From: Naegleria gruberi
Taxonomy: Eukaryota
NCBI GenBank assembly: GCA_000004985.1
Contig: GG739008.1
Reading direction: 5' to 3' (one strand)
Length of the DNA stretch: 11,584 nt
This document shows, piece by piece, positions 2 to 11,584 of the stretch. Numbering within the stretch: the stretch's first letter is position 1; each line of letters starts with the position of its first letter. The notes below the pieces were generated by a model. It was not told where the DNA came from, searched no databases, and worked only from the letters and a program-made list of their open reading frames with translations. A program made the position numbers and the translations under genes.

Positions 2-406
2 TGGAGCGGACAAGAAATTGGAAATGCACTCGATGTGTACAGTTTCAGTATCATTATGTATGAACTGTTCTTTGAGGAGAAACCATTCTTTTCCAATTCT
101 CCTAAAATTCACAAATTTTCTCAATCACCACATCAAGATTCACTTGCATTATCCGTTCCAGTGATGGTGGTGAGGGGTGAACGTCCTAAAATTCCCTGGA
201 ATAACAATGAAGAATTGGAGGTGTGGTTGAGAGAGTTTATTGAACCATTTGAGAAGAAAAATTCTCTAGATCATGAAACTGTTTGTAACGTGTGTAGTGA
301 TTATGTGGAATTGATGAAGCAATGTTGGAATTCCATTCCAAGTAAGAGGCCTTCCTTCAGAGAAATAACACAGTATTTGGAAAAGATTTATTCAAAACTC
401 AAATAA
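2..406 (+). CDS. Protein kinase, C-terminal part of the catalytic domain (TKL/Tyr-kinase-like). The 5' end is outside the window. Stop TAA at 404-406.
   Basis: The frame is open from base 2: WSGQEIGNALDVYSFSIIMYELFF...KPF. This matches kinase subdomain IX (D-x-Y/W-S-F-G-I-x-x-W/YE). It ends with ...CW...P..RPSFREI, the subdomain XI motif seen in TKL/tyrosine-like kinases. AATAAA overlaps the stop. Confidence 0.7.
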   Translation, partial: WSGQEIGNALDVYSFSIIMYELFFEEKPFFSNSPKIHKFSQSPHQDSLALSVPVMVVRGERPKIPWNNNEELEVWLREFIEPFEKKNSLDHETVCNVCSDYVELMKQCWNSIPSKRPSFREITQYLEKIYSKLK

Positions 407-741: not shown

Positions 742-1097
742 CTACTTTGAGTTTGGTTGCTTTCCCTTATTAGCTTCCTCTTGAGTTTGGTGTTCCTTCT
801 TTTCAAGATATTCCAATAAAAGTCGTTGAGACTCTGATGGGAAAAAGGTAATCTTGGCAGCTTTCCAAATGATATTCGGTAAAATTGCAACTACAACTAC
901 TAGTATCGTAGTCAAGGTAGCTTGCACACTCACAAAAGTTTCATAATAAATGTATAAACTCTCAGGATCTCCCAATTCATCTGCAATTGGAGAATAACAA
1001 GCATTGAATGCAAAGTAAAATAAAAAACCAAGTGGCATTAAGATTAAAACTGGAACTGTCAATGTTTTAATCTCCAAAATGTATATCAAAGTGACCA
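742..1097 (-). CDS. P4-type ATPase (phospholipid flippase), C-terminal fragment with the last two TM helices and cytosolic tail. Stop TAG at 742-744. The 5' part is lost in the N gap.
   Basis: Two hydrophobic helices are followed by ...ILPNIIWKAAKITFFPSESQRLLLEYLEKKE. This resembles the conserved P4-ATPase C-terminus (..LLPD..WK..K.T.F.P.....QE.E, as in ATP8A1 and Dnf1/Drs2). The frame stays open into the N run. Confidence 0.6.
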
Positions 1098-3382
1098 NNN
1101 NNNNNNNNNNNNNNNNNNNNNNNNNNNNNNNNNNNNNNNNNNNNNNNNNNNNNNNNNNNNNNNNNNNNNNNNNNNNNNNNNNNNNNNNNNNNNNNNNNNN
1201 NNNNNNNNNNNNNNNNNNNNNNNNNNNNNNNNNNNNNNNNNNNNNNNNNNNNNNNNNNNNNNNNNNNNNNNNNNNNNNNNNNNNNNNNNNNNNNNNNNNN
1301 NNNNNNNNNNNNNNNNNNNNNNNNNNNNNNNNNNNNNNNNNNNNNNNNNNNNNNNNNNNNNNNNNNNNNNNNNNNNNNNNNNNNNNNNNNNNNNNNNNNN
1401 NNNNNNNNNNNNNNNNNNNNNNNNNNNNNNNNNNNNNNNNNNNNNNNNNNNNNNNNNNNNNNNNNNNNNNNNNNNNNNNNNNNNNNNNNNNNNNNNNNNN
1501 NNNNNNNNNNNNNNNNNNNNNNNNNNNNNNNNNNNNNNNNNNNNNNNNNNNNNNNNNNNNNNNNNNNNNNNNNNNNNNNNNNNNNNNNNNNNNNNNNNNN
1601 NNNNNNNNNNNNNNNNNNNNNNNNNNNNNNNNNNNNNNNNNNNNNNNNNNNNNNNNNNNNNNNNNNNNNNNNNNNNNNNNNNNNNNNNNNNNNNNNNNNN
1701 NNNNNNNNNNNNNNNNNNNNNNNNNNNNNNNNNNNNNNNNNNNNNNNNNNNNNNNNNNNNNNNNNNNNNNNNNNNNNNNNNNNNNNNNNNNNNNNNNNNN
1801 NNNNNNNNNNNNNNNNNNNNNNNNNNNNNNNNNNNNNNNNNNNNNNNNNNNNNNNNNNNNNNNNNNNNNNNNNNNNNNNNNNNNNNNNNNNNNNNNNNNN
1901 NNNNNNNNNNNNNNNNNNNNNNNNNNNNNNNNNNNNNNNNNNNNNNNNNNNNNNNNNNNNNNNNNNNNNNNNNNNNNNNNNNNNNNNNNNNNNNNNNNNN
2001 NNNNNNNNNNNNNNNNNNNNNNNNNNNNNNNNNNNNNNNNNNNNNNNNNNNNNNNNNNNNNNNNNNNNNNNNNNNNNNNNNNNNNNNNNNNNNNNNNNNN
2101 NNNNNNNNNNNNNNNNNNNNNNNNNNNNNNNNNNNNNNNNNNNNNNNNNNNNNNNNNNNNNNNNNNNNNNNNNNNNNNNNNNNNNNNNNNNNNNNNNNNN
2201 NNNNNNNNNNNNNNNNNNNNNNNNNNNNNNNNNNNNNNNNNNNNNNNNNNNNNNNNNNNNNNNNNNNNNNNNNNNNNNNNNNNNNNNNNNNNNNNNNNNN
2301 NNNNNNNNNNNNNNNNNNNNNNNNNNNNNNNNNNNNNNNNNNNNNNNNNNNNNNNNNNNNNNNNNNNNNNNNNNNNNNNNNNNNNNNNNNNNNNNNNNNN
2401 NNNNNNNNNNNNNNNNNNNNNNNNNNNNNNNNNNNNNNNNNNNNNNNNNNNNNNNNNNNNNNNNNNNNNNNNNNNNNNNNNNNNNNNNNNNNNNNNNNNN
2501 NNNNNNNNNNNNNNNNNNNNNNNNNNNNNNNNNNNNNNNNNNNNNNNNNNNNNNNNNNNNNNNNNNNNNNNNNNNNNNNNNNNNNNNNNNNNNNNNNNNN
2601 NNNNNNNNNNNNNNNNNNNNNNNNNNNNNNNNNNNNNNNNNNNNNNNNNNNNNNNNNNNNNNNNNNNNNNNNNNNNNNNNNNNNNNNNNNNNNNNNNNNN
2701 NNNNNNNNNNNNNNNNNNNNNNNNNNNNNNNNNNNNNNNNNNNNNNNNNNNNNNNNNNNNNNNNNNNNNNNNNNNNNNNNNNNNNNNNNNNNNNNNNNNN
2801 NNNNNNNNNNNNNNNNNNNNNNNNNNNNNNNNNNNNNNNNNNNNNNNNNNNNNNNNNNNNNNNNNNNNNNNNNNNNNNNNNNNNNNNNNNNNNNNNNNNN
2901 NNNNNNNNNNNNNNNNNNNNNNNNNNNNNNNNNNNNNNNNNNNNNNNNNNNNNNNNNNNNNNNNNNNNNNNNNNNNNNNNNNNNNNNNNNNNNNNNNNNN
3001 NNNNNNNNNNNNNNNNNNNNNNNNNNNNNNNNNNNNNNNNNNNNNNNNNNNNNNNNNNNNNNNNNNNNNNNNNNNNNNNNNNNNNNNNNNNNNNNNNNNN
3101 NNNNNNNNNNNNNNNNNNNNNNNNNNNNNNNNNNNNNNNNNNNNNNNNNNNNNNNNNNNNNNNNNNNNNNNNNNNNNNNNNNNNNNNNNNNNNNNNNNNN
3201 NNNNNNNNNNNNNNNNNNNNNNNNNNNNNNNNNNNNNNNNNNNNNNNNNNNNNNNNNNNNNNNNNNNNNNNNNNNNNNNNNNNNNNNNNNNNNNNNNNNN
3301 NNNNNNNNNNNNNNNNNNNNNNNNNNNNNNNNNNNNNNNNNNNNNNNNNNNNNNNNNNNNNNNNNNNNNNNNNNNNNNNNNN
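1098..3382. other. Assembly gap, 2285 N. All ORF-track translations across it are artifacts.
   Basis: An uninterrupted run of n. Confidence 1.
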
Positions 3383-3403
3383 ATCTGATAGATGGCTCGA
3401 CAT
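3383..3403 (-). CDS. Candidate 5' end of the gap-interrupted flippase gene (MSSHLSD...). Tentative.
   Basis: The minus-strand ATG at 3403-3401 is in good context (acaaacATGtcg, A at -3) and opens a frame running into the gap. The same strand carries the flippase C-terminus at 742-1097. DNA upstream of 3403 looks intergenic. Confidence 0.25.
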
Positions 3404-4027
3404 GTTTGTATCGGTTGCAAGTTTAGGGAAATCAAACTAATCAAAGAATTATATTGATAAACGAATAGTCTGGCTGGGTAGAGAGAACCTCTTTCTTTTG
3501 ATTTTTTTTGAAAATGTCATTTTGATGGCGATAAATAGTTCTTGTCCAAGTTTTCATTGTCCGGTTTCAAAAGCGCTTTTTAGGTGCGCTCAAAGAATCG
3601 TATTGAGATTCAAAGCAAAAACATTTCAACATGCTTAAAAAACACACACCACAAAAAATACACAAAACAACACTATCTTCTTGCCTTTTAACAAGAAGTA
3701 TCTTTTTTTTTTCCTTCCACAACTTGTTGACCATCCACAATGGAGCAAATTTATAATTCTTTTTTTCTCCTTTACATTCTACAGTATTAAAAAAGACATA
3801 TTTTGGATGTATAAAGGAAAGTACATTGAGTATGAGTGGTTCTTGTTCAAACCATTCATAGGAGAGTGAAGAAGACATTTTTTTTCAATATTTATTTTTA
3901 ATAAGAAAAATTTCAATTCATTTGCTTATATTCTTAAATCAATTTGCTTAATCGATTGTAAATAAGCATATTCAATGAACTTTTCCTCATTGTTTTGCTT
4001 TAGCTTTGATAAAATTAAAATTTCAAA

Positions 4028-4353: not shown

Positions 4354-4944
4354 GTCTTCTTTTTGAGAGATGCTGTAAAGTCGTGGGAAGAAAAGAGTGG
4401 ACAAAAAGCTTCCGAAGCTGAACAAGTATTATTATATGGATGGGTTCCTCCAATTGAAAAGATGGACACTACTGTGTCTCAAATGAAAAATTGTAAAAGA
4501 TTAGCTCTCTCAACAAATTGTATAGACAGAATTGGTGGTTTGCAAGGATTGGTATCTTTGGAAATTTTATCACTGGCTAGAAATCAAATCAAGAGATTGG
4601 AAAATCTTGACGCTGTTGCACCAACTTTGGAACAATTGTGGTTGTCTTATAATAACTTGACATCATTAGCTGGTGTTGAAAAATTGAAGAAACTCAAAGT
4701 ATTATATTGTGGAAATAACAAGATTAGTTCTTGGTCTGAAATTGACAGACTGAAAGATCTCCCTGACTTGGAAGAAATTTTACTGACAGGTAATCCATTG
4801 GAAAAGAATACTAAGGATGCAGGTGAAAATTGGAGAATTGAAGTATTGAGAAGATTACCATCGTTAAAGAAACTGGACGGAAGACCATTTGATTTGGCAG
4901 AAAGAGAACAAGCTGAAGGTGTCAGAAAGGATATGGGCGAATAA
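4354..4944 (+). CDS. DNAL1: Dynein light chain 1, axonemal (LC1; leucine-rich repeat protein), main exon. Stop TAA at 4942-4944.
   Basis: ..SWEEKSGQKASEAEQVLLYGWVPPIEKMDTTVSQMKNCKRLALSTNCIDRI..LSLARNQIKRLENLDAV..TLEQLWLSYNNL..KLKVLYCGNNKISSW.EIDRL..LPDLEEILLTGNPLE...WRIEVLRRLPSLKKLDGRPF. This is colinear with human DNAL1 over its whole ~190 aa (WEEKTGQ..SEA, PPIEKMD, LSLSTNCIEKI, LSLGRN.I, LEELW.SYN, LKILY.SNN, GNPLEE, KLKKLDG). Confidence 0.85.
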   Translation, partial: VFFLRDAVKSWEEKSGQKASEAEQVLLYGWVPPIEKMDTTVSQMKNCKRLALSTNCIDRIGGLQGLVSLEILSLARNQIKRLENLDAVAPTLEQLWLSYNNLTSLAGVEKLKKLKVLYCGNNKISSWSEIDRLKDLPDLEEILLTGNPLEKNTKDAGENWRIEVLRRLPSLKKLDGRPFDLAEREQAEGVRKDMGE

Positions 4945-5930: not shown

Positions 5931-7661
5931 ATGGAAAATTCGTATCAAAGTACTGCTGATTCAACTTCATCACCTGCAATTATAATTCCTCCTCTTGCTG
6001 GCCTTTCCTCTGTCAATCAAACAGATGACAATCAAGAAGTGCAGAATAATATTGCCTATCAATCACCAGGTAGCGAACCTTCCTCTCCAACCGGTCCTCC
6101 TTCCAAAAAGAAACCAAAACTATTGTGTGGCTGTATTCGAACTGATAGATATTTGGGTTTTATTGAACTGAAACCTGGTATTACGTGGGTTCATATTACT
6201 TGTTTCTATATTTTGGTTGTCATTTTGCTTAGTATGTTCGTATTTATTAATGCCATGTCAAGTTATGTTTTCGAAGCTTATCTGAGAGGTACTGTAAATA
6301 GAAAAGATCAAGGTAAATTGGCTGGTGACTTGTCGTTTTACAATGAATTGTGCATTTTGGCATTTGGCTTGATTTGGGGCGTGCTGACTGATATTTTGAG
6401 AGGTAGAAAGTTTGTGTACATGATTGGTTTCTTATTTATGGGAATTGGATTGTTCCTCTATACATTTGCTGAAACTATTTGGCAATTGATAATCTACAGA
6501 ATTATTTTTGCTATTGGTGCTGCCAGTACAAGTAGTATGTTAACTGCCATTGTTGGTGACTATGTCAAGAATAAGGATAGAGGTAAAGCATCTGGTTTGT
6601 TGGGATTGGCATCTGGTCTTGGTGCTGTTGTCTCTGCTTTGGCTTGTTTAAAGATTCCATTATGGATTCAAAGTGCTGATCCAACCATTTCAACAGGTCA
6701 AGCAGGTATGATTGCCTTTATGATTATGGCCTTCTTCTGTATTATTGCCATGTGTGCCTTAATGATCTTCTTCAAGGGAAGAATTTTCCCAATTTGTGAC
6801 TCTAAACAAGAACGTGAAGCAACCAGAAGAGAAATGGCTGAAAGTAGCGATTGTGAAGAAGAGGATGATGAAGAAAGATTCAACATTAAGAAATCCTTCA
6901 TCAGATTCAAAAATATCATTTGGGAAGGTTTATTTGTTGCTCCAGCAAAGAGACCATCTCTCATTCTTGCCTACATTTCTGGTTTCGTTGCTAGAGGTGA
7001 CTCTATTCTCATTACCACCTTTATTACATTGTGGGTCTCTCAACAAATGATTGACATTCATGATTCATCCAAGGCAGATGCTACTGCTAGAGGTGGTACT
7101 ATTTCTGGTATTTGTCAAACTTTTGCTCTCATTGCTGCTCCATTTGTTGGTATTTTTGCTGACTTGAGATTTAGAAGAAAGAAGAATCAAGATGTTGAAC
7201 AACAACCTGAACAAGAGGATGATTTCAAGACTGATTTTGTTAGAAAAATGTCGAGATTGATTGTTATGGCAATTGTCTCTGCAATTTCAGGTGTTGGTTA
7301 TACCATGTTATCTTTCCTCACTGATGTCACTGGTGGTTTTGTCTATTTACCAATTGCATTGATTGGTATTGGTGAAATTGGTGTCATTATTTGTTCTCAA
7401 ATCCTTGTCACTGCTGAATCACCAAGTAAGGTCAGAGGTAGCGTCAGTGGTATCTTTACTCTCTTTGGTGCTGCTGGTATTTTAGTGGCCACAAAGGTTG
7501 GTGGATATTTATTCGATGATTGGAAACCAAGTGGTCCATTCCTTTTCTATGGAGTTCTCAATTTTGCATTATTTATTATTTCTATCGGTTTCATTATTGC
7601 CCATGTTATTTACAGGTTCAAGGTTGGTAGAAACTCCAATAAAGGAGTTGACCTTAAGTAA
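5931..7661 (+). CDS. Major facilitator superfamily (MFS) transporter, 576 aa, intronless.
   Basis: An ATG-initiated ORF. About 12 hydrophobic segments fall into two bundles separated by a charged central loop (EREATRREMAESSDCEEEDDEERFNIKK). MFS motif A lies between TM2 and TM3 (GVLTDILRGRKF) and a second copy in the C-terminal half (GIFADLRFRRKK). The N-terminus is Ser/Pro-rich low complexity. Confidence 0.75.
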   Translation: MENSYQSTADSTSSPAIIIPPLAGLSSVNQTDDNQEVQNNIAYQSPGSEPSSPTGPPSKKKPKLLCGCIRTDRYLGFIELKPGITWVHITCFYILVVILLSMFVFINAMSSYVFEAYLRGTVNRKDQGKLAGDLSFYNELCILAFGLIWGVLTDILRGRKFVYMIGFLFMGIGLFLYTFAETIWQLIIYRIIFAIGAASTSSMLTAIVGDYVKNKDRGKASGLLGLASGLGAVVSALACLKIPLWIQSADPTISTGQAGMIAFMIMAFFCIIAMCALMIFFKGRIFPICDSKQEREATRREMAESSDCEEEDDEERFNIKKSFIRFKNIIWEGLFVAPAKRPSLILAYISGFVARGDSILITTFITLWVSQQMIDIHDSSKADATARGGTISGICQTFALIAAPFVGIFADLRFRRKKNQDVEQQPEQEDDFKTDFVRKMSRLIVMAIVSAISGVGYTMLSFLTDVTGGFVYLPIALIGIGEIGVIICSQILVTAESPSKVRGSVSGIFTLFGAAGILVATKVGGYLFDDWKPSGPFLFYGVLNFALFIISIGFIIAHVIYRFKVGRNSNKGVDLK

Positions 7662-8495: not shown

Positions 8496-8701
8496 NNNNN
8501 NNNNNNNNNNNNNNNNNNNNNNNNNNNNNNNNNNNNNNNNNNNNNNNNNNNNNNNNNNNNNNNNNNNNNNNNNNNNNNNNNNNNNNNNNNNNNNNNNNNN
8601 NNNNNNNNNNNNNNNNNNNNNNNNNNNNNNNNNNNNNNNNNNNNNNNNNNNNNNNNNNNNNNNNNNNNNNNNNNNNNNNNNNNNNNNNNNNNNNNNNNNN
8701 N
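8496..8701. other. Assembly gap, 206 N, inside the minus-strand membrane-protein gene.
   Basis: A run of n. Confidence 1.
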
Positions 8702-9335: not shown

Positions 9336-9414
9336 AATTAGCGATTAAACATTTAATTTCATAACATTTCAATTTTCAAATTCTGTAAAATTTCCCAAAT
9401 TGATTGAAAAAAAA

Positions 9415-10194
9415 ATGGCTTCACAAATTTGCTCGCAAATGGGCAAACTTTCAATTGCTAAAGTTTTGGAGGGAACCCTCGGAAATCATGGCTTTAAAAT
9501 CATGTATCGATCCATCAATAAGAATACATTCATTTCTCCGTGGCATGATATTCCACTTCAAGCAAGTGCTAATCATTACTATTTTGTTAATGAAATTCCA
9601 ATGCACACTCTGAAAAAGATGGAAGTCAATACAAAGGAGCAATTTAATCCAATAATTCAAGATGAAAAGAAGGGAAAACTCAGAGAATTTACTTATAGAC
9701 TTGATGCTGGTGGAATTCCTTTCAATTACGGAATGCTTCCTCAAACTTGGGAAGATCCAAAGAAATTAATTCATGTTCCTTTTGGACAAGTTAAGGATGG
9801 TGTTTATCAACCAACTGTTGCTGTTCAAGGTGATAATGATCCAATTGATGTTGTGGAAATTAGTGATGTTGCTTTGGAAATGGGAGAAGTTTATAAAATC
9901 AAAGTTTTTGGAATTCTTGCAATGATTGATGAAGGTGAAATGGATTGGAAAGTTATTGGTAGAGTTGTTTCAGAATCTGAAACCTCAACACTACAACCAG
10001 ATGAAGATTTACAGGACATTTATGATATTCCAAAGGGAAAGATTAATGATATCATTGATTGGTTTAGAATGTACAAGACTACCGATGGAAAACCTGAAAA
10101 TCATTTTGGATTCAATACCACAGTGTTAGATAAGGCCTATGCTAAACACATTATCAACCAAACTCACAAACATTGGAGTGCTATGTCAAAATAA
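9415..10194 (+). CDS. PPA1: Inorganic pyrophosphatase, soluble family I eukaryotic type, 259 aa. Stop TAA.
   Basis: SPWHDIPL, FVNEIP, KKMEV, NPIIQDEKKGKLR, YGMLPQTWEDP, GDNDPIDVVEI, GILAMIDEGEMDWKV, WFRMYKTTDGKPEN.FGF. This is colinear with yeast IPP1/PPA1 and keeps all the key Asp/Glu/Lys/Arg/Tyr active-site positions. The real start is ATG 9415-9417. The ORF-track start at 9400 is TTG. Confidence 0.9.
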   Translation: MASQICSQMGKLSIAKVLEGTLGNHGFKIMYRSINKNTFISPWHDIPLQASANHYYFVNEIPMHTLKKMEVNTKEQFNPIIQDEKKGKLREFTYRLDAGGIPFNYGMLPQTWEDPKKLIHVPFGQVKDGVYQPTVAVQGDNDPIDVVEISDVALEMGEVYKIKVFGILAMIDEGEMDWKVIGRVVSESETSTLQPDEDLQDIYDIPKGKINDIIDWFRMYKTTDGKPENHFGFNTTVLDKAYAKHIINQTHKHWSAMSK

Positions 10195-10323
10195 ATTCAA
10201 CCTTTTTCAATCTTCCAATATCCAAATTGACTGGTAAAACACTTGCTAGAATTTCTTGGAGATGAACAAAAATCAACAAGAATAATGATTTTAAATAATT
10301 TTTTTTATAGTTTGGAAAGAAGT

Positions 10324-10770
10324 TTAAGCAGTGAGTTCGCAGACACCACCAATAGCCTTGATCTTTTCTTCAGCAGACTTGGAGAAGAGTCTAGCTCTGA
10401 CGACGATTGGGATCTTTGGCAAGTCACCTCTACCCATGATCTTGTCGAAACCAGCCTTGTGAGCATCAATAACGACAGCCTTACCACCGAATTTACCTTC
10501 CTTGGCTTGTTGGTAGACTTCTTGTCCGGCAACCTTCCACAATTCGTCAACATTGAGACAATTTGTCAAGAAGTGATTCTTATTCATGTGGAATCTTCTG
10601 ATACCGATCTTACCGAAATAACCAGGATGGAATCTGTCAACCCAGATTCTGTGATGGTGTTGACCACCAGCCATACCACGACCACCAGGGTGCTTTCTGT
10701 GCTTACCGATACGACCGTGACCGTGAGAGACGTGACCTCTCATCTTTCTACACTTCTTCTTAGTTGTGGC
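10324..10770 (-). CDS. RPL27A: 60S ribosomal protein L27a (uL15), exon 2. Stop TAA at 10324-10326.
   Basis: [42 protein letters not shown]...[12 protein letters not shown]...N. This matches the L27a/uL15 N-terminus ([29 protein letters not shown]) and the rest of the protein. The frame is closed by TAG at 10773-10771, directly upstream of the acceptor ttatAG|GCC. Codon usage is strongly biased (GGT, AAG, CAC, GTC, AGA), as expected for a highly expressed gene. Confidence 0.85.
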
Positions 10771-10870
10771 CTATAATATGTTCAAGAGTAAGTAAATAAT
10801 TCATACCAAGCAAGTATTAATTAGAAAAGAGAAGGTAAATATTTTTTAAGAGAGTGACTGCAGTACGTAC

Positions 10871-10873
10871 CAT
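10871..10873 (-). CDS. RPL27A: L27a exon 1, the ATG only, followed by a 100-nt intron (10771-10870; GTACGT...TTATAG).
   Basis: The minus strand reads aaagtcaaaATG|GTACGTactgcag... In-frame splicing to 10770 gives [17 protein letters not shown].., a full-length uL15 N-terminus. Without the splice, the conserved N-terminal residues have no initiator. Confidence 0.6.
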
Positions 10874-11565
10874 TTTGACTTTTGCGTATTTTTTTTTCAA
10901 CAAGTTTTTTAATTATTCGTTGACTACATCGTTTTACAACCAAAGTTTGCTATGGCAAAAATGCTCTCATAATATCTGCAAGCCAGAAAAAGAGCAAAAC
11001 AAAGAAGCTTTCATCAGCCTGTATCACTCACCAAAATAATGTAATCATCATTAGAATAATAGAATAATTTGGAATAGATTGGATTATTAATATTAAAGAT
11101 ATAATTCTTTGTTCTATTAAACTCCTCATCATTAACAATTACAACAACAATATTATATATTCTTAGGAAAATCAAAATTAAAGTATCATTGCAACAATTT
11201 TCATTCACTACATTCCTCTCTCAACCGAATAATAACATTGCATTATTATTAATAATAATTCTTCAACAATTGTTATTAGTTTCGACACTAGGATTGATGA
11301 AGACATCTTTACTTGTCATCATAACACTGGGTTGCCTTTTTAATTTTCCACAAAGAGGTTTTTGGAAACTAACCAAATTCAATGTCAACCAAAGATGAAG
11401 AATGGATTCAAATAATAATCAAAAAGATTGTCAATACTTCATCTTTGGGTTTCTACTATTATAATTAATAGCGAATTACTAGTAATAATAATTTATTCAG
11501 ATAATCAAAATTGTCACACTTTTCACAACCGGAAAAAACAAGAATAGAGAGAATTGAAGAGAATC

Positions 11566-11584
11566 ATGAGTGGAGCAACGTTAC
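11566..11584 (+). CDS. Possible 5' end of a further gene running off the window (MSGATL..). Very tentative.
   Basis: ATG at 11566 follows an A-rich leader (ggaaaaaacaagaatagagagaattgaagagaatcATGagt). The open frame reaches the window end. Only 19 nt are visible. Confidence 0.12.

Follow-up and report, generated by a model that had tools for sequence, protein, structure and literature searches.

An intron directly after the start codon of the ribosomal protein uL15 (L27a) gene in Naegleria gruberi and its heterolobosean relatives

Introns that interrupt a gene directly behind its start codon have been described in several eukaryotic groups. In a survey published in 2006, Nielsen and Wernersson reported that phase-0 introns are sharply over-represented at the position right behind the start codon, an effect seen in vertebrates, arthropods, fungi and plants (PMC1626468). 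[quoted passage not shown] As quoted in that survey, Yoshihama et al. found that the ATG exactly ends exon 1 in 20 of the 73 human ribosomal protein genes. The first-pass annotation of the locus described here regarded such introns as known from ribosomal protein genes, and this survey bears that out (PMC1626468).

The arrangement is also annotated in uL15 genes themselves. In the uL15 gene of Rozella allomycis an intron of 79 nt follows CDS nucleotide 3 (ATG|GTAGGT), and in that of Cafeteria roenbergensis an intron of 177 nt is placed at the same site (ATG|GTGCGT), while a start-codon intron is absent from the uL15 models of Salpingoeca rosetta, Cystoisospora suis and Ramazzottius varieornatus. 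Rozella contains two further introns, after nucleotides 67 and 291, and so does Cafeteria, after nucleotides 67 and 143. According to the annotated models, the position after nucleotide 67 (phase 1) is common to Rozella and Cafeteria and the position after nucleotide 143 (phase 2) to Cafeteria and Salpingoeca.

Here we analyse the corresponding gene of Naegleria gruberi, which lies on the minus strand of a stretch of 11,584 nucleotides (contig GG739008.1, assembly GCA_000004985.1), referred to in its full length as the window. Like the introns of the survey (PMC1626468), the intron proposed for this gene is in phase 0 and directly follows the ATG, its host is a short, lysine-rich and conserved ribosomal protein without signal peptide, and the ATG|G context resembles a proto-splice site. 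Unlike the taxa surveyed, N. gruberi belongs to the Heterolobosea (Discoba), so that the taxonomic range becomes wider while the kind of intron is unchanged. In contrast to Rozella and Cafeteria, the Naegleria gene contains the start-codon intron only. The features of the gene are as follows.

10873..10871, minus strand: initiator ATG, which makes up the whole coding part of the first exon (sequence reading).
10870..10771, minus strand: phase-0 GT-AG intron of 100 nt, GTACGT...TTATAG (sequence signals and orthologues).
10770..10324, minus strand: second coding exon, codons 2-149 of uL15/L27a and the stop codon (TAA at 10326..10324).
10743..10741, minus strand: internal ATG, codon 11, which heads an uninterrupted ORF of 139 amino acids (ORF list).

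Direct reading of the minus strand shows that the ATG, once joined to 10770..10324, yields 450 nt, that is 149 codons followed by TAA. The second exon opens with GCC ACA ACT AAG AAG AAG TGT AGA AAG (ATTKKKCRK) and then reaches the ATG at 10743. These nine codons upstream of the internal ATG lie in an open frame which is closed by a TAG at 10773..10771, and the AG of this TAG is the intron acceptor. The positions and sequence strings given in the first-pass annotation all proved correct when checked on the minus strand. Its description of the first exon as consisting of an ATG only holds for the coding part and not for the transcribed exon, which must also carry the 5' UTR.

This nuclear gene encodes the cytosolic large-subunit ribosomal protein uL15 of N. 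gruberi (L27a in animals, L28 in yeast), as had been proposed from the sequence. In the PDB, the 149-residue product matches dozens of uL15 chains from ribosomes (best E = 3e-55, range about 1e-55 to 1e-35), with residues 1-149 covered and alignments that begin at residue 1 or 2 and extend to the end of the product, and it matches the Pfam family PF00828 (Ribosomal_L27A) with E = 1.6e-13 and 51.3 bits compared to a cut-off of 21.5. Its top database matches are uL15 proteins with 55-90% identity, the closest being those of Naegleria lovaniensis (90%) and Willaertia magna (78%), both 149 residues long. The basic N-terminal extension of eukaryotic uL15, M-x-x-x-x-x-K-x-R-K-x-R-G-H, is present. 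The exact spliced product has in fact already been deposited as EFC35835.1 / XP_002668579.1 (NAEGRDRAFT_82341, 'predicted protein', strain NEG-M), which agrees with the proposed translation residue for residue.

The intron itself carries the usual signals. A single branch-like motif of the form CTNAY is found in it (CTTAC, 18 nt from the acceptor), and its GC content is 28% compared to 47% in exon 2. Reading through the intron would lead to a stop after 18 codons, and its 100 nt are not a multiple of 3. The string ATGGTWYGT, i.e. a start codon fused to a consensus-like donor, occurs once on the two strands of the window taken together, precisely at the start-codon site, compared to 0.30 occurrences expected from shuffled sequences; scaled to a stretch of 300 nt on one strand, the expectation is roughly 0.004. 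The arrangement of ATG and intron therefore exceeds the chance expectation. With regard to length, the median intron of N. lovaniensis measures 80 bp (PMC6125883) and the introns of N. gruberi, which has 1.7 exons per gene, average 203 bp (PMC8296547); a length of 100 nt fits the genus.

Taken together with the comparisons given below, these signals indicate that codons 1 and 2 of uL15 are almost certainly separated by an ordinary U2-type phase-0 intron, the splicing of which in N. gruberi we infer from sequence. The primary transcript would accordingly carry a 5' UTR with the initiator ATG at its end and, directly behind it, the 100-nt U2-type GT-AG intron in phase 0. The spliceosome would excise this intron and join the ATG to GCC ACA ACT, and the ribosome would then produce the full 149-residue uL15, complete with the basic N-terminal tail (K7, R9, K10) found conserved throughout the eukaryotes.

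A structured RNA within the intron, such as a snoRNA, was also considered and rejected, as there is no Rfam match with E <= 1 across 10200..11584 and the interior of the intron is not conserved. The spliced exon-exon junction ATGGCCACAACNAARAARAARTGYAGAAA was searched for in metagenome and metatranscriptome contigs with 0 matches, which is uninformative on splicing either way.

For the comparison with relatives, five loci were used, namely those of N. gruberi, N. lovaniensis, N. fowleri, Willaertia magna and a Naegleria-like contig (L006) from an assembly of the sequencing run SRR13201268. The structures of the orthologues are database gene models, and the intron given for each relative is the only GT...AG placement that reproduces the deposited protein. 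In detail, the following splice sites and intron lengths were obtained.

N. gruberi (window): donor ATG|GTACGT, acceptor TAG|GCC, intron 100 nt.
N. lovaniensis: donor ATG|GTTTGT, acceptor CAG|GCC, intron 85 nt.
N. fowleri: donor ATG|GTTTGT, acceptor CAG|GCC, intron 105 nt.
W. magna: donor ATG|GTATGT, acceptor TAG|GCC, intron 86 nt.
Naegleria-like contig L006: donor ATG|GTACGT, acceptor TAG|GCC, intron 115 nt.

All five heterolobosean loci thus have a coding exon of 3 nt, the ATG, and a phase-0 intron after CDS nucleotide 3. Three of the relatives, N. lovaniensis, N. fowleri and Willaertia magna, carry this layout in their annotation, and in L006 it can be read from the sequence; the deposited Naegleria and Willaertia models (XP_002668579.1, XP_044547580.1, XP_044560242.1 and ABK040_015169) show an identical exon-intron layout. 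The branch-like motif as well as the donor and acceptor features also recur in all four orthologous introns. In the DNA alignment of the five loci, AAATGGT including the donor GT and AGGCCACAAC are invariant whereas the interior of the intron aligns poorly; identity to the relatives is 78-87% in exon 2 compared to 61-68% in the intron, the latter value coming from a forced global alignment. Synteny is also kept across the relatives, with pyrophosphatase and MFS transporter genes adjoining uL15 as in the window. As RNA-seq data went into the BRAKER1 prediction of the N. lovaniensis genes (PMC6125883), there is indirect transcript support for an ATG-only coding exon.

The N-terminus was further examined in an alignment of 14 uL15 sequences from Heterolobosea, fungi, choanoflagellates, stramenopiles, alveolates and animals. 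Five positions, M1, K7, R9, R12 and G13, do not vary in this alignment, and K10 is almost invariant. Of the 13 other sequences, 11 can be aligned to the predicted N-terminus without any gap, the exceptions being Percolomonas with two extra residues and Ramazzottius with one. The gap-free alignment that the first-pass annotation had expected of its 149-residue product is therefore found with most orthologues, and its intron model, ATG|GTACGT...TTATAG|, is supported by this alignment together with the deposited protein and the layout in the relatives.

Two other gene models have to be weighed against the start-codon intron. The first dispenses with the intron and starts translation at the internal ATG (10743), which would give a uL15 of 139 residues lacking the first ten. 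An uninterrupted ORF of this size is indeed present, and records with exactly this product have been deposited, namely EFC37319.1 and gene calls from metagenomes, although the latter stem from contigs without called introns. A protein of this kind would lack K7 and R9, which are invariant, as well as the nearly invariant K10. Moreover, the 27 nt that precede the internal ATG change in the manner of coding sequence: in codons 2-10 each relative differs from N. gruberi by 2-4 synonymous codon changes, whereas the only non-synonymous change in all four relatives is a K to Q replacement in L006. Because the changes among the relatives are almost exclusively synonymous, codons 2-10 show the signature of translated sequence. 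Judging from the codons of the relatives, a start at this site is impossible in four of them because residue 11 is a leucine there; methionine at codon 11 is found only in N. gruberi and two close contigs, with leucine in the other heteroloboseans, and the next methionine in the relatives is residue 34. We consider this model very improbable.

The second model retains splicing and places it elsewhere, either by means of a different 5' exon further upstream or by another in-phase acceptor inside ATTKKK. It is true that ten further in-frame ATG...|GT combinations exist upstream and that direct reading reveals in-phase AAG| sites after codons 4-6 of exon 2. The donors of all these upstream exons are non-consensus (GTCTTC, GTCGAA, GTTGAA and similar), leaving the proposed exon as the only one of 11 possible in-frame first exons with a consensus-like donor, and each of the alternatives would add 2-26 residues that are absent from every orthologue. 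The alignment of the orthologues leaves no space for a first exon of greater length. With respect to the acceptor, GCC ACA ACN directly after the proposed site is conserved in all five loci. The chance that one of these other exons or acceptors is used instead appears to be very small, and the intron between codons 1 and 2 is retained as the structure of the gene.

The internal methionine is also the probable source of the shortened database records. Besides the 149-residue entry, N. gruberi has another record, EFC37319.1 / XP_002670063.1 from a 216-kb scaffold, which represents the 139-residue form beginning at the internal methionine, and two metagenome-derived entries of 139 residues (P0124 and P0125) contain the same product. 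An ORF call of this length is plausible in N. gruberi because the methionine at codon 11 is peculiar to it. In L006, the ORF-based gene call comprises 116 residues and begins at Met34. Such shortened calls would arise because Met11 or Met34 mimics a start when introns are ignored, and the fact that the calls on the metagenome contigs show no introns suggests that the gene caller behind them was unaware of introns. From their sequences, the 139-residue records of N. gruberi and of the metagenomes look like N-terminally shortened annotation errors.

The start-codon intron of uL15 is real, ordinary and already part of the public annotation; a literature search using the locus tags and accessions of the uL15 models found no paper. 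The main value of the present analysis therefore concerns annotation quality: the 149-residue model is correct and EFC37319.1 / XP_002670063.1 is N-terminally shortened, and the calls of 139 and 116 residues on assemblies of metagenomes and sequencing runs can be flagged in the same way. The gene also provides a Discoba example of start-codon introns, whose enrichment among ribosomal protein genes is documented.

Upstream of the ATG, the alignment of the five loci revealed a further conserved element.

About 10881..10902, minus strand: conserved block, approximately CTTGTTGAAAAAAAAATACG (DNA alignment of five loci).

The block, TTGTTGAAAAAAAA(A)TACG, also cited as TTGTTGAAAAAAAAATACG, is about 20 nt long and precedes the uL15 ATG by 6-16 nt. 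It hardly varies among N. gruberi, N. lovaniensis, N. fowleri, Willaertia magna and L006, and the DNA further upstream aligns poorly. In the loci of the relatives it is found at about 2972-2990 (L003), at about 946-964 (L006) and at equivalent positions (L004 and L005). The block is a candidate for an element of the core promoter, of the transcription start or of the 5' UTR. As a possible general motif of ribosomal protein genes, TTGTTGAAAAAAAATACG was also looked for in metagenome contigs, with at least 120 matches; the matches listed look like chance, and none of them has a Naegleria-like context.

One might go further and propose that the start-codon intron of uL15 occupies an ancient, selected position common to Discoba, Opisthokonta and Stramenopila rather than one of recurrent gain, that together with the TTGTTGAAAAAAAATACG block it forms a unit of expression control in Heterolobosea, and that the change from Leu11 to Met could also allow a shortened protein to be made from unspliced mRNA in N. 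gruberi. We regard this combined proposal as unlikely.

The remainder of the window contains the following apparent genes.

9400-10194, plus strand: apparent inorganic pyrophosphatase (syntenic in N. lovaniensis, N. fowleri and Willaertia).
5931-7661, plus strand: apparent MFS-type transporter (syntenic in N. lovaniensis, N. fowleri and Willaertia).
4363-4944, plus strand: leucine-rich-repeat protein resembling axonemal dynein light chain (translation judged by eye).
35-406, plus strand: apparent C-terminal end of a protein kinase (translation judged by eye).

Runs of N at 1098-3382 (2,285 nt), 8445 (1 nt) and 8496-8701 (206 nt) represent assembly gaps, and the very long 'ORFs' across 742-3444 are artefacts of such a run.

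The two close contigs mentioned above, L001 (ENA assembly ERZ929261) and L002 (Logan assembly), go back to one run, ERR1078381, of the metagenome project PRJEB11402. They were the only contigs obtained for the exact 139-residue product, the 216-kb scaffold not being among the results, and for the exact 149-residue product there was no recorded gene position. Both are about 96-97% identical to the window (9347-11380) over 1.4-2 kb, and their uL15 5' region and intron are identical to those of the window in the stretch read. Similarity at this level indicates the presence of an N. gruberi-like amoeba in the PRJEB11402 sample.
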